Origin: Thermoplasmata archaeon
GTDB lineage: Archaea; Thermoplasmatota; Thermoplasmata; Lutacidiplasmatales; UBA184
Direction: 5' to 3'
Assembly (NCBI GenBank): GCA_030037695.1
Contig: JASHQF010000040.1
Location: 1 to 41,696 of the forward strand
DNA length: 41,696 bases
In this document: one piece after another, positions 3,239-41,608 of the stretch
Position numbering within the stretch: position 1 is the first letter of the stretch
How the letters are laid out: the number at the start of each line of letters is the position of its first letter
Made by a program: the position numbers and the translations under genes
The notes under the pieces: generated by a model
Databases searched by the model: none
Seen by the model: only the letters and a program-made list of their open reading frames with translations
Told to the model about the DNA's origin: nothing

Positions 3239-4681
3239 TCACGACCCGACGACCGGGGGATGGGCCCGGTACGCCTGCACGAACTCGGGGCGGATCCGCT
3301 TGAGCTCGGCGTCGGGGAAGTCGGAGACGATCGCCCAAGCGAGCGCGAGGCTCTCGTCGATCGTCCGGTCCTCGTCGGGCCGCTGGTTGACGAACTCCTT
3401 CTCGAACCGGTCGGCGCCGCGCAGGTAGAGCCGGTCGATCGGGCTGAGCGCCTCCTCGCCGACGATCGCGGAGAGCGCCCGCTGGTCCTTCCCCGTCGCG
3501 TACGTCGCGAACAGCTGGTCGGAGACGCCGCGGTGGTCCTCCCGGGTCCGCTTCGGCCCGATCCCTTGGTTCATGAGGCGCGAGAGGCTCGGCAGGATGT
3601 CGATCGGCGGGTAGATCCCCTTGCGCTGGAGGTCCCGGCTGAGGTACATCTGCCCCTCGGTGATGTAGCCGGTGAGATCCGGGATCGGGTGGGTGACGTC
3701 GTCGGCCGGCATCGTCACGATCGGGAGCTGGGTGATTGATCCCTTCCGGCCGTGGATCTTGCCGGCACGCTCGTAGATCGTGGCGAGGTCGGTGTAGAGG
3801 TACCCCGGGTACCCCCGACGGCCGGGGACCTCCTCGCGGGCGGCCGAGACCTCCCGGAGCGCCTCGCAGTAGCTCGTCATGTCGGTCAGGATGACGAGGA
3901 CGTGCAGGTCCTTCTCGTAGGCGAGGTACTCGGCGGCCGTCAGCGCCATCCGCGGGGTGACGACCCGCTCCATCGACGGATCGCTCGACAGGTTGAGGAA
4001 CGCGACGGTCCGCTCGAGGGCGCCGGTCGCCTCGAACTCCTTCAGGAAGAAGTTCGCCTCCTCGCTCGTGATCCCCATCGCGCCGAAGACGACCGCGAAC
4101 CCCTCGGTCGAGTTGCGCAGCTTCGCCTGGCGGACGATCTGCGCGGCGACCTGGTTGTGCGGGAGGCCGGCGCCCGAGAACAGCGGGAGCTTCTGCCCCC
4201 GGACGAGGGTGTTGTTGACGTCGATCGTGGAGATCCCCGTCTGGATGAACTCGCTCGGTTCCTCGCGCGAGTACGGGTTCATCGCGTTGCCGACGATCTC
4301 GAGCCGGGTCTCGCTCACGATCCGCGGGCCGCCGTCGCGCGGCTCGCCGAGGCCGTTGAAGACCCGACCGAGCATCTCGTCGGAGACGGCGAGCGTCGCG
4401 ACCTCCCCGAGGAACTTCACGCTCGTCTCCTCGACGTTGATCCCGATCGTCGGGCCGAACACCTGGACGATCGCGAGCCCCTTGCGCGAGTCGAGGACCT
4501 GGCCCTGCCGGCGCTCGCCGCTCGGGAGCCGGATCTCGACGATCTCGCCGTAGGCGGCGTTCTCGATGTCGCGGACGAACAGGAGCGGGCCCGCGACCCG
4601 GTCGATCGTGCGGTAGTCGACCGGGACGGCGTCCTCGCGCGGTCGCCCGCCGGAGCGCGGGCCGGCCCCCTTCGCCGCCAC
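3239..4681 (-). CDS. atpB: A1AO ATP synthase subunit B (regulatory)
   Basis: 480 aa. [47 protein letters not shown] and [11 protein letters not shown] are characteristic B-subunit blocks. GTG start at 4679-4681 has GGAGGG upstream. Confidence 0.95.
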
Positions 4682-4770
4682 TAGCTCCCTCCGGCGGCGA
4701 CCGCGGCGACCGCCTCCGCCGCCTCGAGATCGAGCCGGTCGAACTCAGCGGCGAGCTTCGCCTCGGGGAT

Positions 4771-7700
4771 TCACTTCATCCGGGAGAGCTTCGTGCGCAC
4801 CGGCAGCTTCTGGAGGTCCGCGACGCTCGCCCCGCGGGCGACCGCCTCCTGGGCCCGGTCGGCGAACGCGAGGATCGCGCGGAGCATCCTCAGCTGCTTC
4901 TGGATCGACGTGTAGGTATCGACGTCGTCGTAGGCGCTCTGCTGGAGGTAGTCCTCGCGGAGCATCCGGGCCGCGTCGAGGGTCGCCTTCTCCCGCTCGG
5001 GGAGCGCGTCGACCCCGACCAGCTGGACGATCTCCTGGAGCTCCGACTCCTTCTGGAGGATCTCGAGGGCCCGCTGACGTAGCGCACCGAACTCCTTGGA
5101 GAGTTCGGCGGCATACCACGGCTCGAGGTCCCCGGCGTAGAGCGAGTAGCTCTGCAGCCAATTGATCGAAGGGAAATGGCGTCGTGCGGCGAGCGACGCA
5201 TCGAGGGCCCAGAAGACCCGGGCGACGCGGAGCGTGTTCTGGCTGACCGGCTCGGAGGTGTCGCCCCCGGGTGGCGAGACCGCCCCCACGACCGTCACCG
5301 AGCCGATCCGGCCCTCGGGCGAGAGCGCGACGACACGTCCCGCCCGTTCGTAGAACTCGGCGATCCGGCGCCCGAGGTAGGCGGGGTAGCCTTCCTCGCC
5401 CGGCATCTCCTCGAGACGGCCCGAGATCTCGCGCATCGCCTCCGCCCAACGGCTCGTCGAATCGGCCATCAGCGCGACGTCGTAGCCCATGTCCCGGTAG
5501 TACTCGGCGATCGTGATTCCGGTGTAGACGCTCGCCTCCCGCGCCGCCACCGGCATGTTCGAGGTGTTGGCGATCAGCACCGTCCGTTCCATGAGGGGTC
5601 GCTTCGACTTCGGGTCGACGAGGTTCGGGAACGTGGCAAGCACCTCGGTCATCTCGTTCCCGCGTTCCCCACAACCGACATAGACGACGACGTCGGAGTC
5701 GGCCCACTTGGCGAGCTGCTGCTGCGTGACGGTGTTGTGCAGGAGAAGCCCGCCCACCCCTCCCACGAAATTCCGGCCGTGCTCCGGGACCGAGACGTCG
5801 TAGACCTCGTACGGGCCGTCGCGCTCCTCCTGGACGTCGACGACCTCGTCGCAGGCGATCCAATCCAGCAGCTCGGTGAGACGTCGGGCGGCCAGCTCCT
5901 CCGGGACCGAGACGGGACCGTCGTCGCCAGCGTCCATAAACGTGCGAAAGGTGACCGCGCCCATGCTCTCCCGGTGGCCGATGTAGTTGTGGATCTCGAT
6001 GCCGTGCTTCCGCAGACCGGAGTACGAGTAATGCGCCCGGTAGAGCCGTTCGAGGAGCTCCGAAGCGACCGGCACCACGTCCGTCGCAGTGTAGCTGCGA
6101 GGCTGCCGCTCGACGTAGCTCCGGAGCGCCGCGATCTTGGGATGCGGCGAGGTGAGTGCCTGGTGCAGACGGTCTAGGTTGGCAACGCCCCGCACGTAGA
6201 TGCGGTAGTACAACTGATCGCCCACGGTCCGACGGGCCAGCGTGGAGAGGATGCCGAACCGGCTCAGCGCGTGGGCCAGACCGATCTGCAGCCGCTCGCT
6301 CGCGGTGCAGAACTCCACGACACCCCCGAAGAAGCCGCCGTCCCCGAGGTAGTACCCGCGAAGGAAGGCACCCAACGAGGGGTCCGTGGAGGCCAGTACC
6401 GACGGGGGGACCGCCTTCTGCGACGAGCCGTTCCCCGCGCCGATACGTCCCAGCAGTCGGACGAGCGAGACGCTATGGAGCAGGACGTTCGGGGTCTTGT
6501 CGCGTTGCCGCTCGATCCGACCGACGACCCCAAACAGCGAACGGGCGAGCTGGAGGAACCTCTCCAAGAGCCCCTCGTCCGAATTGGTGAAGACAACGGT
6601 ACCCCCGCCACGCAGGTAGCCTTCCGCAACATAGAGCCCTAGGAACTCGCCCAGGTCCGGGGTCATGCGGTCCGGAAGGCGGATGACGGTGCCCCGCCGT
6701 CGCAGCTCGGGCAGCTCGATACCGAGCGGGCTGTCCGAAGCTGGGGGAGGGAGTCGGCGCACGGCGGCGAGGTAGTCGCCCGGCCGTAGCTCCCCTGCCG
6801 GAGTCTCCCGAAGTCCACCGTCCGCTCGGACGGCGAACAGCCGATGCACCGGCGTCACTCGAACACGCCGCCCGCTGCGGGTCCTTACGGTGACCAGCGA
6901 ATCGCTTTTCCCTCGATAGAGGACGTTGGTCCGGCTCCGCACGATCCGGTTCCCTGAAAGGGAATACAGCGTGAGGGGGCGGTCCAGCCGAATCCACTCA
7001 TCGGCTCCGTCCACGATCGCTCGTCCAAGGGGTCGCGATCGCTCGTACAGTTCGGCGATCGGCACGATGGTCCCGTCGCCGAGGAACACCGGCGTCTCCC
7101 CGGCGACGCATTTCCCGCTGCCGAACGGACCGGGGATGCAGGCGGTCCCGCCCTTCGCGACGGGGAAGAACGAGTCGATGACGCGCTGGCCGGTGACGAG
7201 CGGGATGTCCGGGGGGAGCTTCTGCCCAACGGGGCGCGGGATACGGACGATCCAGCGATGGCTCAGGTAGACCGGCACCCGCTGCGCGCCCGAGCGGATC
7301 GTGCCGATCGGGTCGCGGATCGTGTACGTCCCGCTCGCGATCGCCTCGAGCGTCCCCGAGACGCCGGGCGGCACGAGGACCTTGTGGACGATCAGCGACG
7401 TCTCGGGGACGGTGCCGAGGATCGTGCCCGGAGTGACCTCGGTGCCGGGCTTGGCCGTCGCCGTGAACTCCCAACGGGCCGTCTCGCTGAGCGGGGGCGC
7501 GACGAACCCTCGAGCGATGAAATCCCCCGAGCTCTTCTGGATCACGTCCAGCGGCCGCTGGACCCCGTCGTAGATCGATTTCAGGAGACCGGGGCCGAGC
7601 TCGACGCTGAGCGCGAGGCCGGTCGACTCGACCGGATCGCCCGGGCGGATCCCGGTGGTGTCCTCGTAGACCTGGACGGTCGCGGTGCCGCCGACGAGCC

Positions 7701-7818
7701 GGATGATCTCGCCGACGAGCCCGAGCGTACCGACGCGGACGACGTCGTACATCTTCGCGCCCTGGAGGCCGTCGACCAGGACGACCGGTCCCGAGACCCT
7801 TGCGACGACCGCCGGCAT
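4771..7818 (-). CDS. atpA: A1AO ATP synthase catalytic subunit A, interrupted by an intein (exteins 7111..7818 and 4771..5733; 556 aa after splicing)
   Basis: The P-loop GPFGSGK|...|[10 protein letters not shown] is split by the insert. Downstream blocks are [28 protein letters not shown] and [22 protein letters not shown]. The ORF ends at TGA 4771-4773; see the finding on the in-frame continuation. Confidence 0.95.
5734..7110 (-). mobile_element. Full-length (459 aa) intein with LAGLIDADG homing-endonuclease domain in the atpA P-loop
   Basis: Cys1 codon at 7108-7110 follows GSGK. The C-terminus is ...GGLLLHN (Asn codon 5734-5736), followed by a +1 Thr that restores GKT. Two LAGLIDADG-like motifs are present ([22 protein letters not shown]), with terminal block [14 protein letters not shown]. 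The insert is visibly less GC-rich than the exteins. Confidence 0.9.
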
Positions 7819-9869: not shown

Positions 9870-9957
9870 CGTCCGGGCGCGGCACGACGGGCGGCCGCTC
9901 TGAGCGCCCGGCCGGAACGCCCTGTCCCGGCGTGTTTCAACCGCCCCCGCGCCGCCG

Positions 9958-9968
9958 CTTTTGCGTTT
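9958..9968 (+). promoter_or_regulatory. T-rich TATA-like element (CTTTTGCGTTT)
   Basis: Lies 27 nt upstream of ATG 9996, the first gene of the RadB-like/PolB operon. Confidence 0.3.
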
Positions 9969-9995
9969 CCCGGGGCGTTGCGCCCCGCACCGTCG

Positions 9996-10859
9996 ATGGT
10001 CGAGCCGTTCCTGGCCGAGCCGGAGCTTCCCCCGGAGGAGGTCCTCCTCCCGCCCGAGGAGGTCGCCGCGGCGTCGCCGCCCCCTTTCCTCGCCCGGTCG
10101 CGGCTCTTCCCCCGGCCCCGTCCGGGACCCGCCGTCGCCCCCGTCCTCCCGGCCGCCCCGGCGCTGTTCCCCTGGCTCGCCCGGAGCCTCACCCCCGGCG
10201 AGGTGACGCTCTGGTGCGGCCCCCGCCTCGCGGTCGATCCGATCCTCGAGACGCTCTACGCCGGGAGCGCCCTCGCCCGGGGCCGGGTCTCCCTCCTCGA
10301 GGGCGGGAACCGGTTCCATCCGTACCGGATCGGCGAGCGCGGACGGGCGCTCGGGGTCGCCGCCGGCGAGACGCTCCGGAGGGTCCGGCTCGCCCGCGGG
10401 TTCACCTCCCACCAGGTCGTGGCGCTCGTCGAGGGGTGGGCCCGCGAGGTCCGTCGTCACCGCCCGACCCTGCTCGTCGGCCACGACCTCCCGGCCCTGT
10501 TCTGGGACGGGGAGACCCCGGACGACGAGCGGGACGCCCTGCTCCGGCGGAGCGCCCGCGCCCTCGCCGCCCTCCTGCGGGAGCTCCCGCTCCCGCTCGT
10601 CCTCACGCTCGGACCGGAGGGGACGGCGAGCTTTCCCGGGCTCGCCGACGAGGGGCCCCGCTGGTCGGACTACGTCGCGTTCGTCCGCGGGCCGACGACG
10701 CTCCGCCTCCGCGCGCTGCGGCGCGACGCCCGCCTCACGCTCGTCGCCCGTGCGCCGGGCCAGCTCGGGATGGAGGCGTTCGACGGCGGGTCCGCCGGGG
10801 AGGTGATCGCGTGGGACGCACCGCCCCGACGTACCGTCAGGCGCTCGAGGAGCGGATGA
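9996..10859 (+). CDS. RadB-like RecA-superfamily protein with degenerate Walker A/B (predicted non-ATPase)
   Basis: Colinear with archaeal RadB. TPGEVTLWCGPRLAVDPILETL sits where RadB has ...G.VTQVYGPxxSGKTTL. RVSLLEGGNRFHPYRI corresponds to VAYVDTEGGFSPERL, and PTLLVGHDLPALFW to ALVVVDSITAHYR. The N-terminal 65 aa are Pro/Glu-rich with a tandem PPEEV. The stop overlaps the next start (ATGA). Confidence 0.55.
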   Translation: MVEPFLAEPELPPEEVLLPPEEVAAASPPPFLARSRLFPRPRPGPAVAPVLPAAPALFPWLARSLTPGEVTLWCGPRLAVDPILETLYAGSALARGRVSLLEGGNRFHPYRIGERGRALGVAAGETLRRVRLARGFTSHQVVALVEGWAREVRRHRPTLLVGHDLPALFWDGETPDDERDALLRRSARALAALLRELPLPLVLTLGPEGTASFPGLADEGPRWSDYVAFVRGPTTLRLRALRRDARLTLVARAPGQLGMEAFDGGSAGEVIAWDAPPRRTVRRSRSG

Positions 10860-11065
10860 AACGCTGGGACGCGTTCGCCCGCCTGCTCCCGACGCCCGAG
10901 GAGCGGGCCGCGTTCGAGCTCCTGCGCACCGGGGCGCGGCGCTACGTCGCCCAGGCGACGTACGTCGGGAGCCCGGACCTCCTCGAGTCGATCGTCCTCT
11001 CCGTCCTCACCGATCTCGCGGTCCGGCTCCGCGCGGACGGGAACGCCCGGCCGACCTCCCGGTGA
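10856..11065 (+). CDS. small (69 aa) helical protein of unknown function
   Basis: MKRWDAFARLLPTPEERAAFELLRTGARRYVAQATYVGSPDLLESIVLSVLTDLAVRL... The ATG overlaps the upstream TGA, and its own TGA overlaps the polB GTG (GTGA). An alternative GTG at 10811 would add 15 aa. Confidence 0.45.
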   Translation: MKRWDAFARLLPTPEERAAFELLRTGARRYVAQATYVGSPDLLESIVLSVLTDLAVRLRADGNARPTSR

Positions 11066-13386
11066 GCCCCGCGGCGGACGGCCTCGCGCCCGACGGCTGG
11101 CTCCTCGAGATCACGGAGAGCGGCGACGGCCGTTCGGTCGTTCTCTGGACGAAGGAGCGTCGCTCGGGCCGGGTCCACCGCGCCGCGGTCCCGTACCGGC
11201 CCCCGTTCCTGGTCGCCGGGGCGCGGGCCGATCTCGCCGACCTCGCGCGTCGCCTCACCGGGCGGGCCGACGTCGCGTCGACCGAGCCGGTCGTGCGGCG
11301 GCCGTCGCCGTTCGATCGTCGGGCGCGCACGATGCTCGCCGTCACCCCCGCGCACCACCGGCTCCGTCGCCGCCTCGCCGGGACGATCGACGCGCTCGGC
11401 GGGTACGAACGGTTCGCGCTCTTCGACGTCGACCTCGCGGTCCCCCAGCTGTACCATCTCCACCACGGCCTCTACCCGTTCGCGCCGGTCGTCGCCCGCG
11501 ACGGCGGGCTCGTCGCGACGGAACCGGTCGCCACGATCGACTACGCCCCGCCCCCCCTCGTCGTCGCCCGCCTCGAGGTCCGTCTCACCGGGATGCGCCC
11601 GGGCGGGCTTCCCCCGCCGGACGGCCGGATCGGGTCGGTGCGGCTCGGCGGGGTGACGCTCGAGGGCCCCGAGGACGACCTCCTCCGCGCGCTCGCGGGG
11701 GAGCTCGCGCGGAGCGACCCGGACCTCCTGCTCACGGACGGCGGGGACGCGTTCGACCTCCCCTGGCTCTACCGGAGGGCGAGGGCGGTCGGCCTCGCTC
11801 CCGAGGAGTTCGTCCTGGGCCGGGAGCCGGCCCCGTTCGGCCCGAGCCGGCCGGCCCGCTCGTTCGCGTCGTACGGCCGGGTCCTCCACCGGGACGCGAC
11901 GTTCCCGCTGCCCGGCCGGTTCCACGTCGACCGGGAGAACTCGTTCCTCTTCGACGACGCGGCGGTCGCGGGGCTCGTCGACGCGGCCCGCCTCGCGCGC
12001 CTGTCCCTGCAGACGGTCGTCCGGCAGTCCCCGGGGACGTGCTTCACCGCGATGGAGATGGCCGAGGCGCTCGCGAGCGGCGTCCACGTGCCGTGGAAGA
12101 AGAACCGCCCCGAGACGTTCCGACGGGGGGACCACCTCGTGCGCTCCGACCGCGGCGGGGTGATCTTCCTCCCCCCGGTCGGCGTCCACGACCGGATCGA
12201 CGAGTTCGACTTCGCCAACCTCTACCCGCACCTCATGGTGCGGCGGAACCTCTCCGCCGAGACCCTGGACTGCCGGTGCTGCCCCGCGAGCCCGCTCCGG
12301 GCCCCCGGCCTCGGCTACCGGTCCTGCGAGCGGACGGTCGGCCTGATCCCGCGGACCCTCGGCCCCCTCCTCGCGCGCCGGCTCGCCTACAAGGCCCGGC
12401 TCCGCCGGCCCGGGCTCGCCCCCGACGTCCGCGCGAGCCTCGAGCACCGCGTCCGGATGCTGAAGTGGATCCTCGTCACCGCGTTCGGCTACCAGGGGTA
12501 CCGGAACGCCCGGTTCGGCCGGATCGAGTGCCACGAGGCGATCAACGCCTACGCCCGCGAGCTGCTCGCGACGCTCGTCGCCGAGGCAGAGCGCGCGGGG
12601 TACCGGACCGTCCACGGGATCGTCGACTCGCTCTGGCTCCGCCCGAGCCCGCCGGACGGGACGGTCGACCCCGAGGGGTTCGCCCGGGCGATGAGCGAGC
12701 GTCTGGACGTCCCGCTCGGCTACGAGGGTCGGTACCGCTGGATCGTCTTTTTGCCGGCCGTGACGCACGGCCTCGGGGTGCCGAACCGGTACTACGGGCT
12801 GTACGCGTCGGGGGCGTTCAAGCTCCGGGGGATCGGGGGCCGCCGCCACGACACCCCCGGGGTCCTCCGCCGCCTGGAGGCGGAGGTCCTCGAGCTGTTC
12901 CGCCGGGCGGACGGCGCCGCGGGGGTCCGCGCCCTCCTCCCCCGGGCGCTCGCGCGGACGGACCTCGTCGCCGCCCGGCTCCGGGAGGGGGGATGGCCGC
13001 TCGAGGAGCTCGTGATCGCCCACCGGATCGGCCAGCCCCCCGGGGCGTTCGTCACGTTCACCGACTCGCTCGCGGCCGTCCGCCAGCTCGCCGAGGCCGG
13101 CGTGGCGCGAGGGGCGGGAGAGACGGTCCGCTACGTCCTCCTCGACCGCGCGAGCCGCTCGTTCCGCCACCGGGTGCGGCCGGCGGAGCTGCTCCGAGGG
13201 GACGAGCGGTACGATCCCGGAGCGTACCTCGAGCTCCTCGCCCGGGAGGCGGAGACGCTCCTCGCCCCGTTCGGGGTCGAGCGGGCCGCCCTCCTCGCGC
13301 GGTGGGGCGCCCCGGCGCGGGCGGAGCGGGACCCCTACCGCTCGCCGGAGCGGACCGAGCAGCGCCCGCTCCCGGCCAACTTTTAG
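11062..13386 (+). CDS. polB: Family B DNA polymerase, accessory PolB2-like type with degenerate exonuclease/polymerase motifs
   Basis: Colinear with archaeal PolB. LFDVDLAVPQLYHLHHGLYPF corresponds to YDIPFAKRYLIDKGLIP. DRGGVIFLPP is the Y-GG region. Motif A is DFANLYPHLMVRRNLSAETL, followed by GLIPRTLGPLLARR. Motif B is KWILVTAFGYQGY and motif C is HGIVDSLW. Confidence 0.85.
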   Translation: MSPAADGLAPDGWLLEITESGDGRSVVLWTKERRSGRVHRAAVPYRPPFLVAGARADLADLARRLTGRADVASTEPVVRRPSPFDRRARTMLAVTPAHHRLRRRLAGTIDALGGYERFALFDVDLAVPQLYHLHHGLYPFAPVVARDGGLVATEPVATIDYAPPPLVVARLEVRLTGMRPGGLPPPDGRIGSVRLGGVTLEGPEDDLLRALAGELARSDPDLLLTDGGDAFDLPWLYRRARAVGLAPEEFVLGREPAPFGPSRPARSFASYGRVLHRDATFPLPGRFHVDRENSFLFDDAAVAGLVDAARLARLSLQTVVRQSPGTCFTAMEMAEALASGVHVPWKKNRPETFRRGDHLVRSDRGGVIFLPPVGVHDRIDEFDFANLYPHLMVRRNLSAETLDCRCCPASPLRAPGLGYRSCERTVGLIPRTLGPLLARRLAYKARLRRPGLAPDVRASLEHRVRMLKWILVTAFGYQGYRNARFGRIECHEAINAYARELLATLVAEAERAGYRTVHGIVDSLWLRPSPPDGTVDPEGFARAMSERLDVPLGYEGRYRWIVFLPAVTHGLGVPNRYYGLYASGAFKLRGIGGRRHDTPGVLRRLEAEVLELFRRADGAAGVRALLPRALARTDLVAARLREGGWPLEELVIAHRIGQPPGAFVTFTDSLAAVRQLAEAGVARGAGETVRYVLLDRASRSFRHRVRPAELLRGDERYDPGAYLELLAREAETLLAPFGVERAALLARWGAPARAERDPYRSPERTEQRPLPANF
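13380..13386 (+). promoter_or_regulatory. TATA-like CTTTTAG containing the polB stop codon
   Basis: Lies 22 nt upstream of the GNAT GTG at 13409. Confidence 0.3.
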
Positions 13387-35604: not shown

Positions 35605-37107
35605 CTAGCGGCGGCGGAGGGTCACGACCGATTCCCGTAGCTCGAAGCTGCGCCGCTGGCCGCTCCGTCGCCGGCGCGCCACGTCGACCGCCTCGATCTC
35701 GAGGCCGAGCCGGGCCCCGATCCGGGCGAGCAGGAGATCGCCCGGGACGTACGTGCCCGCGAGCAGGGAGTCCCCCAGGACGATCACGAGCCGACCTCCG
35801 GTCGAGAGCGCGTCGCGCAGGCGGGCGAGCACCGGCAGGAGATCGTCGAAGTACTTGCGCACGACCGCGTGCATGTCGTCCCGGCGGTACGTCCCCTTGC
35901 GTCGGACGTTGTCGCGGATCCGCGAGAGGATCGTCCCGAGCCACGGGTCCGGCGCGCCGGCGAGGCCGAGATGCGCCGCCGTCTCCGAGCGGGGGAGGTT
36001 GTCGCAGGCGACCTCAACCCGGCGGAGCGCCGCCAGGTCGGCGTACGAGTGCGCGTAGCCGAGCCAGGCGAGGTCGAGCTTGTAGTTCATGACGTAGTCC
36101 ATCCCGTTGACGTACGGCGGGCTGGTCACGACCAGATCGACCGACCCGGGGGGCAGCTCGAGCGAGCGGGCGTCCTGGGCGATCAGGCGGGCGGGGGGAC
36201 CCCACCGCGCGCGGTCCGCGCCGAGTGTCCGCAGGTCGTCCCGCATCTCCCCGATCCGCCGCTCGAACCGCGCGATCGGGGCGATCGTCTCCGCCGGCGG
36301 GCCCCTCGCGTAGCCGAGGCAGGGGGACCGGTGGAGGCGGCTCGAGGGGATCAGGATCCCCCCGAAGGCGACGCGGACCGCCTCGGCGACCGGGGTCCCC
36401 TCGGGGGGGAGCGCCCGCCGGAGGCGGAGCAAGCCGCGCAGGGCCCGGGGGTCGAACTGCTGCGCGGTCCGGTGGAGGAACGGCGCGGGGTCCGCGGGGC
36501 CGCGCTCGGCCGCCCGGATCGTGCGGCGCGCGGCGGACACGAGCGCCGTCGGAGAGAGCTCGAAACGGCTCTTGACCCGAGCGGCGAGGAGCGCCGGCGG
36601 GAGGATCTCCACGCCGATCGCGCGGGCCCCGGCCCGGCGCGCTTCGACGACCGTTGTCCCGCTGCCGGCGAACGGGTCGAGCACGGTCCGCCCGCGGATC
36701 TCCCCCCCGTGGACGAGCACGCCGCGGACGAACTCGGCCGAGAAGCCTTGGACGTACGGCCACCAGCGATGGACGGGCTCGGTCTCGTTCGACCGGAACG
36801 TGATCGGTCCGTCCCAACGACCGAGCCGAACGCCGTTCTCCCGGAGGAACCGCTGCTCGTACGTGCCGGGGCCCTCGAAGTCGTCCCGCCCGACGAGATC
36901 CTCGTAGGCCCGCAGCATCCACAGGCCCCGCCCCACCCGAAGGACCTCCCCGCGGACCGCGAGCTCGTCCAGGGCGGCCTCGATCGGTCCCGGCGCGGAC
37001 GCTAGTCGCGTGGCGAGCTGTCGGGCGGTAGCGCCGAGGGCGCCGCTCTCCACGAGCGCGCGGCGGAGCGCGACCGGGAACGCGCCGGATCCGGAACGGC
37101 TAGGCAT
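35605..37107 (-). CDS. Site-specific DNA methyltransferase (N6-adenine/N4-cytosine class) with N-terminal winged-helix domain
   Basis: The AdoMet motif I is VLDPFAGSGTTVVEARRAGARAIGVEI and the catalytic motif IV is VVTSPPYVNGMDY, about 180 aa downstream (order I -> IV). The N-terminal ARQLATRL...LDELAVRGEVLRVGRGLW is wHTH-like. Start at ATG 37105-37107. Confidence 0.7.
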   Translation of the reverse strand: MPSRSGSGAFPVALRRALVESGALGATARQLATRLASAPGPIEAALDELAVRGEVLRVGRGLWMLRAYEDLVGRDDFEGPGTYEQRFLRENGVRLGRWDGPITFRSNETEPVHRWWPYVQGFSAEFVRGVLVHGGEIRGRTVLDPFAGSGTTVVEARRAGARAIGVEILPPALLAARVKSRFELSPTALVSAARRTIRAAERGPADPAPFLHRTAQQFDPRALRGLLRLRRALPPEGTPVAEAVRVAFGGILIPSSRLHRSPCLGYARGPPAETIAPIARFERRIGEMRDDLRTLGADRARWGPPARLIAQDARSLELPPGSVDLVVTSPPYVNGMDYVMNYKLDLAWLGYAHSYADLAALRRVEVACDNLPRSETAAHLGLAGAPDPWLGTILSRIRDNVRRKGTYRRDDMHAVVRKYFDDLLPVLARLRDALSTGGRLVIVLGDSLLAGTYVPGDLLLARIGARLGLEIEAVDVARRRRSGQRRSFELRESVVTLRRR

Positions 37108-38008
37108 GCGGAGTGCCTCCCGGCGGCCCCGAGGGCTTGTCCACCGCACGGGCGGGGAGCGCCGGGCGGGCGAGATGCCCCCGGACCCTCGCGCGTTCCC
37201 CCCGCCGGCGGGCCCGGAGGCGGCGGGCGACCGCCGAGGCCTCGAGCCCGGGCGGCAGGGTCGCGAGCGCCACGTCGAGGTCGTGGATCCGGCCGAGCCG
37301 GTCCTGAAGCCCCTTCATCCCGTCCGATCGTGCCCGATGCCCGGGAGAGCCGAGCGCCCCGGCGAGGCTCGTGAGCTGGCGATGCTGGCGGATCCGGATC
37401 CGCAACCGATGCAGCCGATCCGGGGTCGGGGTCTTCTGCGCGCGTCGCAGCGCCTTGCGCAGCTTGCGCTCGAACGCGGCCGCTTCCCGCTCCCAGCCGC
37501 GAGGGACCTCCGCGCTCGCTCCCCGACGGAGCGGCCGCGCGAGGGCGTCGCGGGCTTGCCCGAGCGCGCCGGCCCCCCGCGCGGTGTGAAGGTAGGCCTT
37601 CAGGAGCTCGCGCGCGGTTCGGGCGTCGTCGCGCATTCGGGCGAGGAATCGCTCCAGCCGTCGCCGCTCCCCGGCCGGGGCGGCCCGAGGGAGCTCCGAC
37701 ACCAGGAGCGCGGCGGTCACGTCCCGGTCGCGCACGCGGCCGACGAGGCGTGCGAGACGGCGCAGCCGCTTCACGACCGGTCGGGTCCGCGTCGCGTCCA
37801 CGGGGGGAAGGAACCTCGCGAAGATCCCGAGGGAGATCGCCAGTCGGCGCATGTCACGGTGCAGGTCGTGGAGCAGGGCCGGGCTCGGGTGCGCCTCGTG
37901 GATCGTCCGGCCCACGAGCTCCTCGACCCGATCGACGAGCCCCTCGACCTCCTGGCGGACCCGCAGGGAAGCGACGGGCCGCGGGGGGGCCCGGGGCGCC
38001 GCGGGCAT
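37100..38008 (-). CDS. CHAD-domain protein (polyphosphate-associated)
   Basis: All-helical and Arg/His-rich, with repeated CHAD signatures LHDLHRDMRRL, VGRVRDRDV, LHRLRIRIRQHR and LGRIHDLDV. Start at ATG 38006-38008. The stop overlaps the methyltransferase ATG by 8 nt. Confidence 0.75.
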   Translation of the reverse strand: MPAAPRAPPRPVASLRVRQEVEGLVDRVEELVGRTIHEAHPSPALLHDLHRDMRRLAISLGIFARFLPPVDATRTRPVVKRLRRLARLVGRVRDRDVTAALLVSELPRAAPAGERRRLERFLARMRDDARTARELLKAYLHTARGAGALGQARDALARPLRRGASAEVPRGWEREAAAFERKLRKALRRAQKTPTPDRLHRLRIRIRQHRQLTSLAGALGSPGHRARSDGMKGLQDRLGRIHDLDVALATLPPGLEASAVARRLRARRRGERARVRGHLARPALPARAVDKPSGPPGGTPHA

Positions 38009-38083
38009 CGAACCCCCTCCCACCCGAGCCGGCAGGTAAGCGATTCGGTCCGCCGCCTCGCCCGAGACGGCCCGGGCGAACGG

Positions 38084-38090
38084 GTTTATC
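38084..38090 (+). promoter_or_regulatory. TATA-like GTTTATC for the ppx operon
   Basis: Lies 20 nt upstream of GTG 38111, in the 102-nt divergent CHAD/ppx intergenic region. Confidence 0.35.
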
Positions 38091-38110
38091 CCCGACGCCG
38101 CTCCGGCATC

Positions 38111-39667
38111 GTGGCCCGCCGCGCCGTCCCGGCCCCGGCCGTCCGGGTCCGCTCCTCCGCCGCACCCAGTACGATCGGCGTGATCGATCTCGGGTCGAAC
38201 ACCGCGCGGTGCGTCGTCTTCGAGACGTCACGGGCGCGCACCGTCCGGGCGGTCTTCGAGACGAAGGAGGCGCCCCGGCTCGGTCTGGACACACGCTCCG
38301 ACGGCGCCCTCGCGCCGGCCGCGGTCGCCCGAGGGCTGAGCGCGATGCGGAAGTTCTCCCGCACCTTGCGCGTGCTCGGCGTCCCCCGCACGATCGGGGT
38401 CGCGACGAGCGCCGTGCGGGACGCGCCGAACGGGCCCGCCTTCGTCCGTCGCGTGGCTACGGCGACCGGGGTCTCGCTCCGGATCCTGTCCGGGGCGGAG
38501 GAGGCGCGGTACGCCTACCTCGGGGTCGCCGGATGGAGCGAGCTCGGGGACGACCTCGTCTGCGATCTCGGCGGAGGCTCGCTCCAGCTGATCGCCATAC
38601 GCCACCGGGTCGCCGACGGCTCGGTCAGCCTGCCGCTCGGATCGCTGCGGCTCTCCCGGCGGTTCCTCGATCACGACCCGCCGAAGCGACGGGAGCTCGA
38701 TCGGCTGCGAGCGCACGTACGTCGCACCGTCCGCGACGCCGTCGAGGCCCTCGGAGGCCGGGCGGACCGGTTGTTCGGCGTCGGCGGGACGGTGCGGGCG
38801 CTCGCGCGGGCCTCGATCGAGCTGCGGGGGTTCCCGGTGCGGCGGGTCCACGGCTACCGGCTCTACGGCCACGACCTCGAGGCCCTCGACGAGCTCCTCG
38901 GCCCGATGCCGGCGGCGAAGCGCCGCTCGGTCCCGGGGATCGGGGGGGACCGGGCCGACGTCGTCCTCGCCGGCCTCGTGGTGCTCGAGGAACTCATGCG
39001 GGCGGTCGGCACCGACGCTACCGTCGTCTCGGGGGCCGGTATCCGCGAGGGGATCGCCCTCGAGGCGATCGGGGCCTCCCTGCCGGCCGCGGCGGAGGAG
39101 CTCGTCGAGCGGTCGGTGACCGCCGCGGCCGAGGCGCTCTCGTTCCGTCGGGACCACGGCCGGACCGTCGCGGAGGCGGCCCTGGCGCTGTTCGACCTCT
39201 TGCGGCCGCAGCACGGATGGGGCCGCAGCGAGCGGCTCGCCCTACGGGCGGCCGGAGGGATGCACGATGCCGGGATCGCGGTCGACCTGTGGAACCACGC
39301 GCAACACTCGTCGTACCTGCTCCAGAACTACCCGGTCGCCGGGCTCGATCCGCGCGAGGTCGTGCTCGCCGCCATGGCCGCGTACCTCCACGAGGGCGGC
39401 GAACCCCCGTCGGACTGGAAGCGCCGGTACCTCCCCGTCCTCGTACCCGCGGACCTCGAGGTCGCCGTCCAGCTCGGGGCGATCCTCCAGCTCGCCGAGC
39501 TGGTCGGCGGGGCCCGTCCGCGGTTCCGGCTCCGGCGGGGGGGTCGCACGCTGTCGGTGGGCTTTTCTGCGGGGTCGGGCTCGGCGCCGTCCTCGCGATG
39601 GCTGGAGAAGGCGCGCAAGCCGATGGAGCGGGTCTTCGACCTCGAGGTGGTCCCGCGTGAACGCTGA
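38111..39667 (+). CDS. ppx: Exopolyphosphatase, Ppx/GppA family
   Basis: The ASKHA phosphate loops IGVIDLGSNTARCVVFE, GVATSAVRDAPNG, ILSGAEEARYAYLGV, DLGGGSLQL and GVGGTVRALA are present, followed by an HD-like helical C-domain. GTG 38111 is in frame with track ORF 37010. Confidence 0.9.
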   Translation: MARRAVPAPAVRVRSSAAPSTIGVIDLGSNTARCVVFETSRARTVRAVFETKEAPRLGLDTRSDGALAPAAVARGLSAMRKFSRTLRVLGVPRTIGVATSAVRDAPNGPAFVRRVATATGVSLRILSGAEEARYAYLGVAGWSELGDDLVCDLGGGSLQLIAIRHRVADGSVSLPLGSLRLSRRFLDHDPPKRRELDRLRAHVRRTVRDAVEALGGRADRLFGVGGTVRALARASIELRGFPVRRVHGYRLYGHDLEALDELLGPMPAAKRRSVPGIGGDRADVVLAGLVVLEELMRAVGTDATVVSGAGIREGIALEAIGASLPAAAEELVERSVTAAAEALSFRRDHGRTVAEAALALFDLLRPQHGWGRSERLALRAAGGMHDAGIAVDLWNHAQHSSYLLQNYPVAGLDPREVVLAAMAAYLHEGGEPPSDWKRRYLPVLVPADLEVAVQLGAILQLAELVGGARPRFRLRRGGRTLSVGFSAGSGSAPSSRWLEKARKPMERVFDLEVVPRER

Positions 39668-40358
39668 GCGCCCGAGCCCGTTCCACGGCTACCCCGGCCG
39701 GCTCCTCGTCTTCGAGGGGCTGGACGGCAGCGGTAAGTCGACGCAGGCGGCGCTGCTCGGCAAGTGGCTCTCCGCGCAGGGCTACCGGGTCTTCTTCACG
39801 GAGTGGAACTCCTCCGACCTCGTCTCGAGCGTGATCCGGCGTGGGAAGAAGAAGGGCCTCCTGACCCCCACGACCTTCAGCCTCCTCCACGCCACCGACT
39901 TCGCCGACCGGTTCGAGCGGAAGATCCTGCCGCCGCTCCGAGCGGGGTACCTCGTCGTCTGCGATCGGTACGCCCACACCGCGTTCGTCCGGGACGCCGC
40001 GCGAGGGTGCGATCCGGACTGGGTGCGCACGATCTACTCGTTCGCTCCGCGGCCCGACCGCGCGTTCTACTTCCGGGTCCCGGTCTCGGTGACGCTCCGC
40101 CGCAAGCTCGCTTCCCGCCTCAAGATCAACTACTACGAGGCCGGCATGGACCTCGGCCTCGCCGACTCCGTCGAGGAGAGCTACGAACGGTTCCAGAGCC
40201 GGCTCAAGCGCGAGTACGACCGGATCGCCGAGGTCGACCGGTTCGCGGTCGTCGATGCCATCCGGCCGGTCGAGGCGGTCCAGGCGGAGCTCCGCGCGAA
40301 CCTCCAACCGCTGCTCGCGAACTTCCCCACCGGGGCGGACCTGATGCATGACGGCTAG
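39657..40358 (+). CDS. Thymidylate-kinase-like P-loop kinase, paralog 1 (candidate polyP kinase subunit)
   Basis: LLVFEGLDGSGKSTQ (Walker A), LLHATDFADR and VVCDRYAHTAF (DRY/H motif) are present, plus an extra segment INYYEAGMDLGLADSVEESYERF. GTG 39657 overlaps the ppx 3' end by 11 nt. Confidence 0.8.
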   Translation: MNAERPSPFHGYPGRLLVFEGLDGSGKSTQAALLGKWLSAQGYRVFFTEWNSSDLVSSVIRRGKKKGLLTPTTFSLLHATDFADRFERKILPPLRAGYLVVCDRYAHTAFVRDAARGCDPDWVRTIYSFAPRPDRAFYFRVPVSVTLRRKLASRLKINYYEAGMDLGLADSVEESYERFQSRLKREYDRIAEVDRFAVVDAIRPVEAVQAELRANLQPLLANFPTGADLMHDG

Positions 40359-41109
40359 GACGTACGGTACCGGGCTGCCGGGGATGCCGCAGGGCACGCT
40401 CGGCGGCAAGCTGATCGTGATCGAGGGGGCCGACGGCTCCGGGCGGACCACCGAGGTCGCCCTCCTCAAGGACGCGCTCGAGGTCGAGGGCCACGCGGTC
40501 GTCGACACCGGTCTGCGTCGCTCCGACCTCGTCAGCGCGGAGATCGACCGGGCGAAGCAGGGGCACACGCTCGGGGCGACGACGATGGCGCTCCTCTACG
40601 CGGTCGACTTCGCCGACCAGCTCGAGAACAAGATGATCCCCGCGCTCGCGGCGGGGAGCACGGTCCTCGCGGACCGGTACATCTACACGCTGATGGCGCG
40701 GGCGATCGTCCGGGGCGCGTCCCGGGAGTACGCCCGGGAGCTGTACGGCTTCGCGCTGCAGCCGGATCTGGTCGTGTTCCTCGACGCCCGGCCCGAGATC
40801 CTGCTCCACCGCGCGATCGGCAAGTACGGGAGCCTCGACTTCTGGGAATCCGGCATGGACCTGTCGCTCTCCCGCGACCTGTTCGAGAGCTTCTTCCTCT
40901 ACCAGGCCCGGCTCTCGCGGGAGTTCGACTGGATGCGCGAGGAGTACGCCTTCCACCGCGTCGACGCGAACCGGGGACCCGAGCTCGTCCACGAGGAGGT
41001 GCGGCGGCTGGTCGCGCCCCTGTACGGGATGAAACCCCCGCCCCGGCCCGTCGGGCGGGAGCCGCGGCCTACGGGCGACCGCGCTCGTCGGCGAGCTGCT
41101 TCCTCGTAA
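40348..41109 (+). CDS. Thymidylate-kinase-like paralog 2 with Walker A Lys->Arg (candidate non-canonical/regulatory subunit)
   Basis: LIVIEGADGSGRTTE, LLYAVDFADQ and VLADRYIYTLMA are present, with the same extra segment LDFWESGMDLSLSRDLFESFF. The ATG overlaps paralog 1 by 11 nt. Confidence 0.75.
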   Translation: MTARTYGTGLPGMPQGTLGGKLIVIEGADGSGRTTEVALLKDALEVEGHAVVDTGLRRSDLVSAEIDRAKQGHTLGATTMALLYAVDFADQLENKMIPALAAGSTVLADRYIYTLMARAIVRGASREYARELYGFALQPDLVVFLDARPEILLHRAIGKYGSLDFWESGMDLSLSRDLFESFFLYQARLSREFDWMREEYAFHRVDANRGPELVHEEVRRLVAPLYGMKPPPRPVGREPRPTGDRARRRAASS

Positions 41110-41608
41110 GCAGCCAGACGAGCCGACCGGCGCCCGGCTTCACGCCGTCGGGGAACTCGAGGCACGCCGCCCCGCCCTTCGTGAAGTGGACGGCCGAGAT
41201 CCCGTCGCCCGCGATCGCCATGCCGACGAACTCCGCGAGCGTGGGCTCGTGGCCGACCAGCATCACCCCACCGCTCGGGGTCAGTCGACGCAGCCGCTCG
41301 AAGATCGGCTCGGGAAGTCCTCCGGGGGCGAGCTCGGGCCACGTCTCGAGCCGGGGCGTCGGGGCCAGGGTCTCGCGCACGATGCGGGCCGTGGCGAGGG
41401 CCCGCTCGGCCTCGCTCGTCGCCATCCGGCGCACCGGCGTCGCGACCCGGGCGAGACCTTTCGCGGCCCGCCGGGTCTGGCTCTGCCCCTTCGAGGTGAG
41501 GGGCCGTCGGTCGTCGTCGGGCCAGCGCACCGGGTCCCGGTCCTCCGCGGGGCCGTGCCGGACCAGGGTGACCCTCACGTTGCGAACCTTGCGGGCGGGG
41601 GCAGACAT
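41069..41608 (-). CDS. sixA: SixA-like phosphohistidine phosphatase (histidine phosphatase superfamily, branch 1)
   Basis: VTLVRHGPAE (RHG motif), RPLTSKG, and LVGHEPTL (the second catalytic His) are present. 179 aa. Overlaps the convergent Tmk-like paralog 2 by 41 nt. Confidence 0.8.
   Translation of the reverse strand: MSAPARKVRNVRVTLVRHGPAEDRDPVRWPDDDRRPLTSKGQSQTRRAAKGLARVATPVRRMATSEAERALATARIVRETLAPTPRLETWPELAPGGLPEPIFERLRRLTPSGGVMLVGHEPTLAEFVGMAIAGDGISAVHFTKGGAACLEFPDGVKPGAGRLVWLLTRKQLADERGRP

Follow-up and report, generated by a model that had tools for sequence, protein, structure and literature searches.

A Putative PPK3-type Polyphosphate Kinase Module in a Thermoplasmata Archaeon

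Organization of the Polyphosphate Locus

The DNA analyzed here, referred to as the window, is the 41,696-nucleotide contig JASHQF010000040.1 (GenBank assembly GCA_030037695.1) of a Thermoplasmata archaeon. Toward its end lies a group of genes around the exopolyphosphatase gene ppx and two genes for thymidylate kinase (Tmk)-like proteins, which are described below as candidate subunits of a PPK3-type polyphosphate (polyP) kinase. The ppx gene (38111..39667, + strand) begins with GTG and encodes a protein of 518 residues with a Ppx-GppA domain and domain III. It is followed on the same strand by Tmk-like 1 (39657..40358, +; GTG start, 233 residues; PF02223, E = 2.2e-26) and Tmk-like 2 (40348..41109, +; ATG start, 253 residues; PF02223, E = 1.2e-17). 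The stop of ppx and the start of Tmk-like 1 overlap by 11 nt, as do the stop of Tmk-like 1 and the start of Tmk-like 2. On the opposite strand, a CHAD gene (37100..38008, −; PF05235) is transcribed divergently from ppx and, with its ATG at 38008, encodes 302 residues. Translation could also begin farther upstream, at a GTG at 38023, and from this first possible start the open reading frame (ORF) spans 37100..38023 (−). The divergent intergenic region between the CHAD ATG and the ppx GTG is 102 nt long (38009..38110).

An initial annotation of this DNA had described the CHAD gene, ppx, the two Tmk-like genes, both 11-nt overlaps, and the 102-nt gap, and each was recovered at the position it had given. 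The region that it delimited ended at 41109. A fifth member of the module lies beyond that end, a gene for a SixA-like histidine phosphatase of 179 residues (41069..41608, −; PF00300, E = 8.7e-10; TIGR00249). It is convergent with Tmk-like 2, and the two genes share 41 nt at the 3′ end of the latter. Independent gene calls on the identical locus of NCBI assembly GCA_030046495.1 gave the same starts and lengths.

A TATA-like box, TTTAT, was read in the sequence at 38085–38089, 22 nt upstream of the ppx GTG. In most of the related Thermoplasmata-type loci introduced below, an AT-rich box (TTTA, ATTAG, ATTAA, or TTTTA) stands ~22–28 nt before the predicted ppx start. These boxes stand out against a G+C content of ~74%, which the window has throughout. 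The TTTAT box may be an archaeal promoter and would then give a leaderless or near-leaderless ppx-cPPK3-rPPK3 transcript.

A Tmk-like pair next to ppx has been described for Sulfolobus acidocaldarius, where Saci_2019 is the catalytic subunit cPPK3 and Saci_2020 the regulatory subunit rPPK3 of a polyphosphate kinase (J Biol Chem 2026; PMC12995831). Saci_2019 converts ATP to polyP and runs the reverse reaction, from polyP and ADP to ATP, much faster. Saci_2020 is inactive alone, activates Saci_2019 ~10-fold, and forms an α2β2 complex with it. Neither subunit has thymidine monophosphate (dTMP) kinase activity, and only Saci_0893 is a true dTMP kinase (PMC12995831). The initial annotation had referred to this system, and the publication agrees with its account.

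Tmk-like 1 as the Candidate Catalytic Subunit

Compared with the sequences of the PDB, Tmk-like 1 matched STK_15430 (2plr/5h70) over its full length with an E value of 9.7e-60, versus 1.6e-17 for the best canonical Tmk. Sequence identity was 50% to Saci_2019 and 46% to STK_15430. The AlphaFold model of Tmk-like 1 had a pLDDT of 90.4, and its best fold match was 5h70 (TMt 0.94, root mean square deviation 1.6 Å).

To collect relatives, one genome of each GTDB species was scanned, an alignment of Tmk-like 1 and STK_15430 serving as the query; this yielded at least 557 confirmed loci. The best 80 of these loci, 28 Thermoplasmata-type and 52 other, were used for taxon and synteny counts, and 81 c-type and 74 r-type proteins from the same 80 loci were aligned. 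The Walker A motif GLDGSGKST, the DRY motif (residues 103–105), and the lid arginine R149 are invariant in the 81 c-type sequences, Tmk-like 1 included. Every other invariant c-type feature is also carried by Tmk-like 1 (TEWNSS, KKK, and TPTTFSLxHATDFADR, next to GSGKS, DRY, and R149). Positions were classed as c-specific basic if Lys or Arg occurred in at least 80% of the c-type but fewer than 40% of the r-type proteins. All seven residues of this class, which is defined by alignment columns, are present in Tmk-like 1 (K36, R61, R62, K65, K66, R85, and R154).

The motif T-R-E-P-G-G, a stacking Phe, and the Arg of ADRxxH are what we take to be the dTMP contacts of canonical Tmk structures. They are replaced by T-E-W-N-S-S, H78, and F82 in Tmk-like 1 and by T-G-L-R-R-S, Y78, and F82 in Tmk-like 2. 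For PPK3, it has been reported that the dTMP contacts of dTMP kinases are not conserved (PMC12995831).

The replacement of these motifs in both proteins speaks against the explanation implied by public databases, namely that both genes encode ordinary thymidylate kinases and that a housekeeping tmk and its duplicate stand beside ppx by chance. That explanation draws on the PF02223 matches of both proteins and on the database names, since all named relatives are called dTMP kinase and STK_15430 itself was deposited as such. In addition, Tmk-like 1 scored 97.6 bits with the NCBIfam dTMP kinase equivalog TIGR00041, above the cut-off of 83.25. Tmk-like 2 stayed under the cut-off with 77.9 bits and lacks the Walker-A lysine. 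Tree placement and gene linkage, presented below, also oppose ordinary thymidylate kinases, an explanation that we consider highly improbable. Judged by its sequence, Tmk-like 1 is the cPPK3 orthologue, that is, the predicted catalytic Tmk-fold subunit of a polyphosphate kinase.

Tmk-like 2 as the Candidate Regulatory Subunit

The best PDB match of Tmk-like 2 was again STK_15430 (E = 9.6e-32, 32–33% identity). Its model (pLDDT 86.0) fitted the ST1543 structures best, with TMt values of 0.88–0.93, and canonical Tmk folds matched the models of both proteins more weakly (TMt 0.77–0.89). Identity to Saci_2020 was 31% (E = 8e-29). Tmk-like 2 was assigned to the r-type because of its placement in the tree and because of shared signature residues, namely Y78, ADQxEN, and TG[LI]xxS, which it has in common with Saci_2020 and with the r subunits of M. 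sedula and S. tokodaii. In the c-only basic columns 36, 61, 62, 65, 66, 85, and 154, Tmk-like 2 has D, D, R, Q, G, Q, and Y. Six of the seven positions are thus nonbasic, a cleft-residue pattern that agrees with the one expected for PPK3.

The P-loop and the DRY motif had been noted initially as kept in both proteins. DRY is indeed present in both, and the P-loop is intact in Tmk-like 1; in Tmk-like 2 the Walker-A lysine is replaced by arginine (GADGSGRTT, with GSGRT at its core). The same arginine was found in all 74 r-type neighbors and in the r subunits of M. sedula and S. tokodaii, and Saci_2020 has SSGKT. Replacement of the Walker-A lysine in P-loop kinases normally abolishes phosphotransfer. 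DRY is kept in 74/74 r-type neighbors outside the Sulfolobales, whereas DGY stands in its place in all three r subunits from the Sulfolobales. The pattern was the same in an independent sample, clustered at 50%, of 150 representatives: the Walker-A position of the Y78-type proteins was occupied by Arg (or C, L, S, V, M, Q, or H), and DRY was mostly retained.

The inactivity of Saci_2020 has been explained by the missing catalytic arginine of the DRX motif (PMC12995831). With DRY in every r-type neighbor outside the Sulfolobales, replacement of the DRX arginine, as published for rPPK3s, does not generalize, and loss of this residue looks like a peculiarity of the Sulfolobales rather than a definition of the family. 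Across the aligned sequences, loss of the Walker-A lysine appears as the broader hallmark of the r subunit. Its combination with a retained DRY motif would serve as the better diagnostic.

At its N terminus, Tmk-like 2 is furthermore extended by 19 residues that include a conserved motif, and its C-terminal tail is basic. The motif, [RK]-x-[YF]-G-x-x-[LI]-P, occurs in r-type proteins outside the Sulfolobales, with the glycine in 72/74 and the aromatic residue in 72/74. In Tmk-like 2 it reads RTYGTGLP at residues 4–11 (window positions 40357–40380). In the alignments it was absent from the c-type proteins and from Saci_2020. The motif had pLDDT values of 40–64 in the monomer model, as would be expected of a peptide that docks or forms an interface.

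Some of these features bear on whether the r subunit is truly inert. As a variant of the PPK3 reading and not an alternative to it, both subunits might be competent in catalysis or ligand binding, and the r subunit would then hold an ATP/ADP-sensing site or perform a second phosphotransfer step. The r-type proteins outside the Sulfolobales keep not only DRY and the Walker-A arginine but also the lid R149, D23, R112, and R116, and they share an invariant r-only R52 (Tmk-like 1 numbering). The wide retention of DRY in the independent sample and the N-terminal motif that Saci_2020 lacks point in the same direction. Such competence is opposed by the Walker-A replacement and by the variety of residues found at that position in other r-type representatives. 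The six nonbasic residues at c-only basic positions of Tmk-like 2 and the inactivity of Saci_2020 also count against it, and we regard a competent r subunit as unlikely.

A further proposal concerns the common form of the r subunit, seen in Tmk-like 2, in all 74 r-type neighbors outside the Sulfolobales, and in the majority of metagenomic representatives, which would not be a dead scaffold like Saci_2020. It might sense nucleotide or phosphate, set the direction between polyP synthesis and ATP regeneration according to energy charge, or act as a second phosphotransfer site. We put this forward tentatively and hold it to be doubtful. If it were true, then with at least 557 species genomes from many phyla involved, PPK3 would be a widespread polyP kinase family whose typical regulation is unlike that of the sole studied example. 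From its signatures and tree position, Tmk-like 2 is the rPPK3 orthologue, the predicted regulatory and probably noncatalytic subunit.

Phylogeny and the Family-specific Insertion

A neighbor-joining tree was calculated from Kimura distances for 87 sequences over 225 columns with 200 bootstraps; it is not a maximum likelihood tree. Seven canonical Tmks served as outgroups (T. thermophilus, E. coli, Bacillus, Ruegeria, Nonomuraea, Anabaena, and a haloarchaeon), drawn in part from plasmid or chromid records. The split between canonical Tmk and PPK3 received 97.5% bootstrap support. Both window proteins fell on the PPK3 side together with Saci_2019 and Saci_2020, neither of which is a dTMP kinase, and apart from all seven canonical Tmks, which argues further against ordinary thymidylate kinases. 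Within PPK3, a c clade (90%) contained Saci_2019, STK_15430, and Tmk-like 1, and an r clade (86.5%) contained Tmk-like 2 with Saci_2020 and the r subunits of M. sedula and S. tokodaii.

The Thermoplasmata sequences formed one clade in each subtree, at 100% for c and 94% for r. Relationships among phyla were unresolved and discordant between the two subtrees. The c sequences had Acidobacteriota, Proteobacteria, and others as sisters, and the r sequences had Sulfolobales and Nitrososphaerales. Because the sister groups differ, no claim is made about a donor lineage for the Thermoplasmata module.

The initial annotation had inferred a system of the Sulfolobus type, with a PPK3-type pair beside ppx in a euryarchaeal genome, and had called for a phylogenetic comparison. 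The tree, the PDB matches, and the fold comparison agree with that inference. The host assignment is borne out by close relatives of the Tmk-like genes, which are labeled Thermoplasmata archaeon, and by an archaeosine tRNA-ribosyltransferase gene downstream in the identical locus of GCA_030046495.1.

An extra segment of ~35 residues had also been pointed out in both proteins. It is real and specific to the family, although only ~12 residues of it are a true insertion relative to the seven canonical Tmks. This insertion (…EAGMDLGLADSVEE…) follows the lid helix and is common to both window proteins, STK_15430, and Saci_2019. It lies within a longer conserved stretch that is specific to the PPK3 family.

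Distribution and Conserved Synteny

A cPPK3 relative was present in at least 557 GTDB species genomes. Among the best 80 loci, the 28 Thermoplasmata-type loci (64–86% identity, one of them labeled bacterium) formed the largest group, followed by 14 from Nitrososphaerales and relatives and 12 from Nitrospira or Nitrospirae. Smaller numbers came from Planctomycetota (4), Acidobacteriota, Proteobacteria, and Firmicutes (3 each), and Methanocella or Methanocellaceae (2). One locus each was found in Conexivisphaerales, Binataceae, Myxococcales, Omnitrophica, Sumerlaeota, Patescibacteria, Caldisericota, FCPU426, and Chthoniobacterales, and two belonged to unclassified bacteria. The Thermoplasmata-type locus labeled bacterium (DAIDCO010000074.1) comes from a metagenome-assembled genome (MAG), has 82% identity, and shows the same CHAD/ppx/c/r/SixA layout. 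It has probably been mislabeled, or else its bin is mixed. A tblastn search of a plasmid collection with Tmk-like 1 did not find the PPK3 module and returned only canonical tmk genes at no more than 33% identity.

The linkage of the Tmk-like pair to ppx, which had been seen in the window, is maintained in relatives. ppx directly precedes the c gene in 28/28 Thermoplasmata-type and 36/52 other loci, and the c gene directly precedes the r gene in 27/28 and 50/52, respectively, or 77/80 overall. At both junctions, genes in the relatives' loci commonly overlap by 4, 8, or 11 nt, as judged from estimated start codons. In the bacterial replicons examined, the housekeeping tmk gene adjoins holB, and the retention of the ppx-c-r linkage across many phyla is a further point against a chance association of ordinary tmk genes with ppx.

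The outer members are more variable. A SixA gene was present in 23/28 Thermoplasmata-type loci, in 21 of them convergent and directly after the r gene as in the window, and in 24/52 other loci. CHAD was present in 24/28 Thermoplasmata-type loci, in 19 of which it is divergent and upstream of ppx as in the window, and in 3/52 other loci.

One protein of the collection, P0122 (460 residues), is a natural fusion of a c-type with a following r-type half, the latter with a degenerate Walker A motif (SGH). Because such natural c-r fusions exist, a physical association of the two subunits is indirectly supported. PPK3-type domains were also observed in further fusions, namely P0127 (696 residues), P0148, P0151, P0214 (1610 residues), and P0268 (2575 residues), some of which are much longer multidomain proteins.

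Accessory Proteins

The ppx product is of the long form, with domains I/II (PF02541, E = 2.3e-54) and domain III (PF21447, E = 1.2e-10). Its best NCBIfam match was TIGR03706, exopolyphosphatase, with 264.8 bits under a cut-off of 307. An assignment as GppA was rejected, since the GppA equivalog reached only 109.6 bits.

The CHAD protein matched PF05235 with E = 2.7e-22 and 80.3 bits (gathering cut-off 25.6). It is very basic, with a pI of 11.9, and is predicted to bind polyP. The SixA-like protein scored 76.6 bits with TIGR00249 (sixA; cut-off 74.5).

A gene for a methyltransferase-like protein of 500 residues (35605–37107, −) follows CHAD on the same strand, and its first 8 nt fall within the end of the CHAD gene. 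The protein gave only short N6_N4_Mtase and UPF0020 matches around residues 147–184. In at least 14–17 Thermoplasmata-type loci, CHAD is likewise followed by the methyltransferase gene, a small ORF, and a HAD hydrolase gene, in this order. Because the order CHAD to methyltransferase is conserved, CHAD may be cotranscribed with genes that have no known connection to polyP.

The Remainder of the Window

Elsewhere the window encodes subunits of an A-type ATPase, PolB, GyrA, ribosomal protein S15, an aminoacyl-tRNA synthetase, CarA, CarB, a thioredoxin-reductase-like protein, a HAD hydrolase, and the methyltransferase-like protein described above. Among the genes of the 41.7-kb window, PPK1, PPK2, or a third Tmk was not found; for PPK1 and PPK2 this had been noted from the start.

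The gene for catalytic subunit A of the ATPase (4771–7818, −) is interrupted by an intein (Intein_splicing, residues 247–695) with a LAGLIDADG homing-endonuclease domain (LAGLIDADG_3, residues 484–551). The genes for subunit B (3239–4744) and subunit I (119–2404) adjoin it. The family-B DNA polymerase ORF (11062–13386, +) gave a weak, partial Pfam match (E = 7e-13, residues 364–512) and is preceded by an ORF of 329 residues (9870–10859, +) with no Pfam match.

Discussion

The gene anatomy, the orthology of both Tmk-like proteins, their motif states and folds, and the conserved synteny lead us to read the region as a complete PPK3-type polyphosphate module, with its activity assigned by homology. 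We give this reading a probability of roughly 0.85. Several observations weigh against it. The identity to the tested Sulfolobus enzyme is only 50% for the c and 31% for the r subunit. By raw similarity, Tmk-like 2 is slightly nearer to Saci_2019 (34%, E = 7e-40) than to Saci_2020. Tmk-like 1 passes the cut-off of the dTMP kinase equivalog. Finally, Tmk-like 2 has DRY and so does not show the loss of the DRX arginine given for rPPK3; because that arginine is kept, the case for its inactivity is the Walker-A Lys-to-Arg replacement alone.

On the PPK3 reading, the module might work as follows. ppx, cPPK3, and rPPK3 would be cotranscribed from the TATA-like promoter and translationally coupled through the 11-nt overlaps. 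The c subunit would bind ATP or ADP through its intact Walker A motif, DRY, and lid, and its basic cleft, in place of the dTMP site, would hold polyP. Phosphate would then be moved reversibly between ATP and the end of the polyP chain. The r subunit, without the Walker-A lysine and the basic cleft, would be noncatalytic and would probably activate the c subunit through assembly of a heterotetramer. Ppx would hydrolyze polyP to phosphate, the very basic CHAD protein would bind polyP, and the SixA-like phosphatase may contribute a regulatory step of an unspecified kind. Activity, oligomeric state, direction of flux, and promoter use in this scheme are proposed by analogy.

The direction of flux is where another explanation has to be weighed, in which the pair uses polyP or ATP to phosphorylate some other acceptor, for instance AMP, another nucleoside mono- or diphosphate, or a small phosphorylated metabolite, does not elongate polyP chains, and the module only consumes polyP. 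The S. acidocaldarius enzyme strongly prefers the direction from polyP to ATP, with 50-fold higher specific activity, and shows net synthesis of polyP only at a high ATP/ADP ratio (PMC12995831). Two-domain PPK2 enzymes of class II, in which one domain is dead, phosphorylate only AMP (PMC12995831). These precedents would suit a different acceptor. Set against them, the c-specific basic residues, TEWNSS, KKK, and TPTTFSLxHATDFADR are invariant between Tmk-like 1 and the polyP-synthesizing Sulfolobales enzymes, and no other polyP-forming enzyme is encoded in the window. A different acceptor thus seems quite improbable to us, and the PPK3 reading is retained.

The module itself, the exaptation of Tmk to a polyphosphate kinase, and the PPX/SixA/CHAD neighborhood were already published in 2026. 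In that account, the PPK3 clade consists mostly of bacterial dTMP kinase paralogues with horizontal spread across both domains, and PPX, SixA, CHAD, PstS/C, and Nudix genes are reported from PPK3 neighborhoods in bacteria and archaea (PMC12995831). Its main text names Sulfolobaceae, Nitrososphaeraceae, and a few bacteria, and neither version mentions Thermoplasmata there (PMC12995831). The initial expectation that both the distribution and the composition of the module would be extended therefore fared unevenly. The distribution does reach beyond the taxa of that main text, although horizontal spread across both domains had been described. The composition is not extended, because the Sulfolobus operon already holds CHAD and SixA. 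Beyond the text of the paper, a whole Thermoplasmata lineage carries the module, with 28 Thermoplasmata-type species genomes among the best 80 loci, and the family is far wider than a few bacteria. In the sequences compared here, moreover, the typical r subunit has lost a different catalytic residue than Saci_2020 and carries a conserved N-terminal motif.

The database names of the relatives deserve attention. TIGR00041 evidently captures cPPK3, because proteins of the Saci_2019 type are named dTMP kinase in databases, and the uniform labeling of the relatives is explained by a model that admits cPPK3. The label dTMP kinase on PPK3 relatives is a systematic misannotation. Thousands of dTMP kinase entries from Thermoplasmata and many bacterial phyla are probably PPK3 subunits. 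Surveys restricted to PPK1 and PPK2 would wrongly deny the capacity for making or using polyP to these soil Thermoplasmata, many Nitrospira, and Nitrososphaerales, and likewise to Planctomycetota, Acidobacteriota, and others.

Comparison with Known Systems

Canonical Tmks (PF02223/TIGR00041) share with the window pair the P-loop kinase fold, the Walker A region, DRY, and the lid arginine. They differ in the dTMP-binding residues, lack the 12-residue insertion, and form a separate clade. Canonical Tmk genes are linked to replication genes, whereas the window pair is linked to ppx.

The two-domain PPK2 enzymes of class II, such as PA3455 of P. aeruginosa, also combine one active unit of the P-loop kinase type with a second, paralogous unit that is degenerate (PMC12995831). 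The degenerate unit of class II PPK2 is needed for oligomerization and activation, and both systems favor polyP-driven phosphorylation of nucleotides (PMC12995831). These enzymes belong to the PPK2 family and are not derived from Tmk. Their units are fused domains, whereas those of PPK3 are usually separate subunits, and the sites for ADP and polyP have exchanged places between the two (PMC12995831). The name ppk3 had already been applied earlier to a PPK2-family enzyme of Ruegeria pomeroyi, Q5LSN8, which makes PPK3 ambiguous as a name (PMC13318637).

The closest structures are those of STK_15430 (ST1543) from Sulfurisphaera tokodaii (2plr, 4nzy, 4rzx, and 5h70), a protein that both window proteins match best in sequence as well as in fold. 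It was deposited as a dTMP kinase and is now regarded as a cPPK3 homologue. Unlike the window pair, the crystal structure comprises the c subunit alone.

The closest characterized system is the PPK3 of S. acidocaldarius, encoded in the operon saci_2017–2021 with the order SixA (saci_2017), ppx, cPPK3, rPPK3, and CHAD (saci_2021) (PMC12995831). The five families were confirmed in this locus, and the M. sedula and S. tokodaii loci have the same layout. The window holds the same five families, with the c gene followed by the r gene and overlapping ends; the c subunits share all motif states, and the r subunits share their signature residues and the loss of basic cleft residues. The two systems differ in arrangement, as CHAD is divergent and SixA convergent in the window but both are part of a single codirectional operon in Sulfolobus. 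They differ also in the r subunit, which has GSGRT and DRY in the window, SSGKT and DGY in Saci_2020, and GSGRT and DGY in M. sedula and S. tokodaii. The window Ppx has 518 residues with domain III, compared with 411–420 residues in the Sulfolobales, and the host is a Thermoplasmata archaeon of ~74% G+C known only from MAGs.

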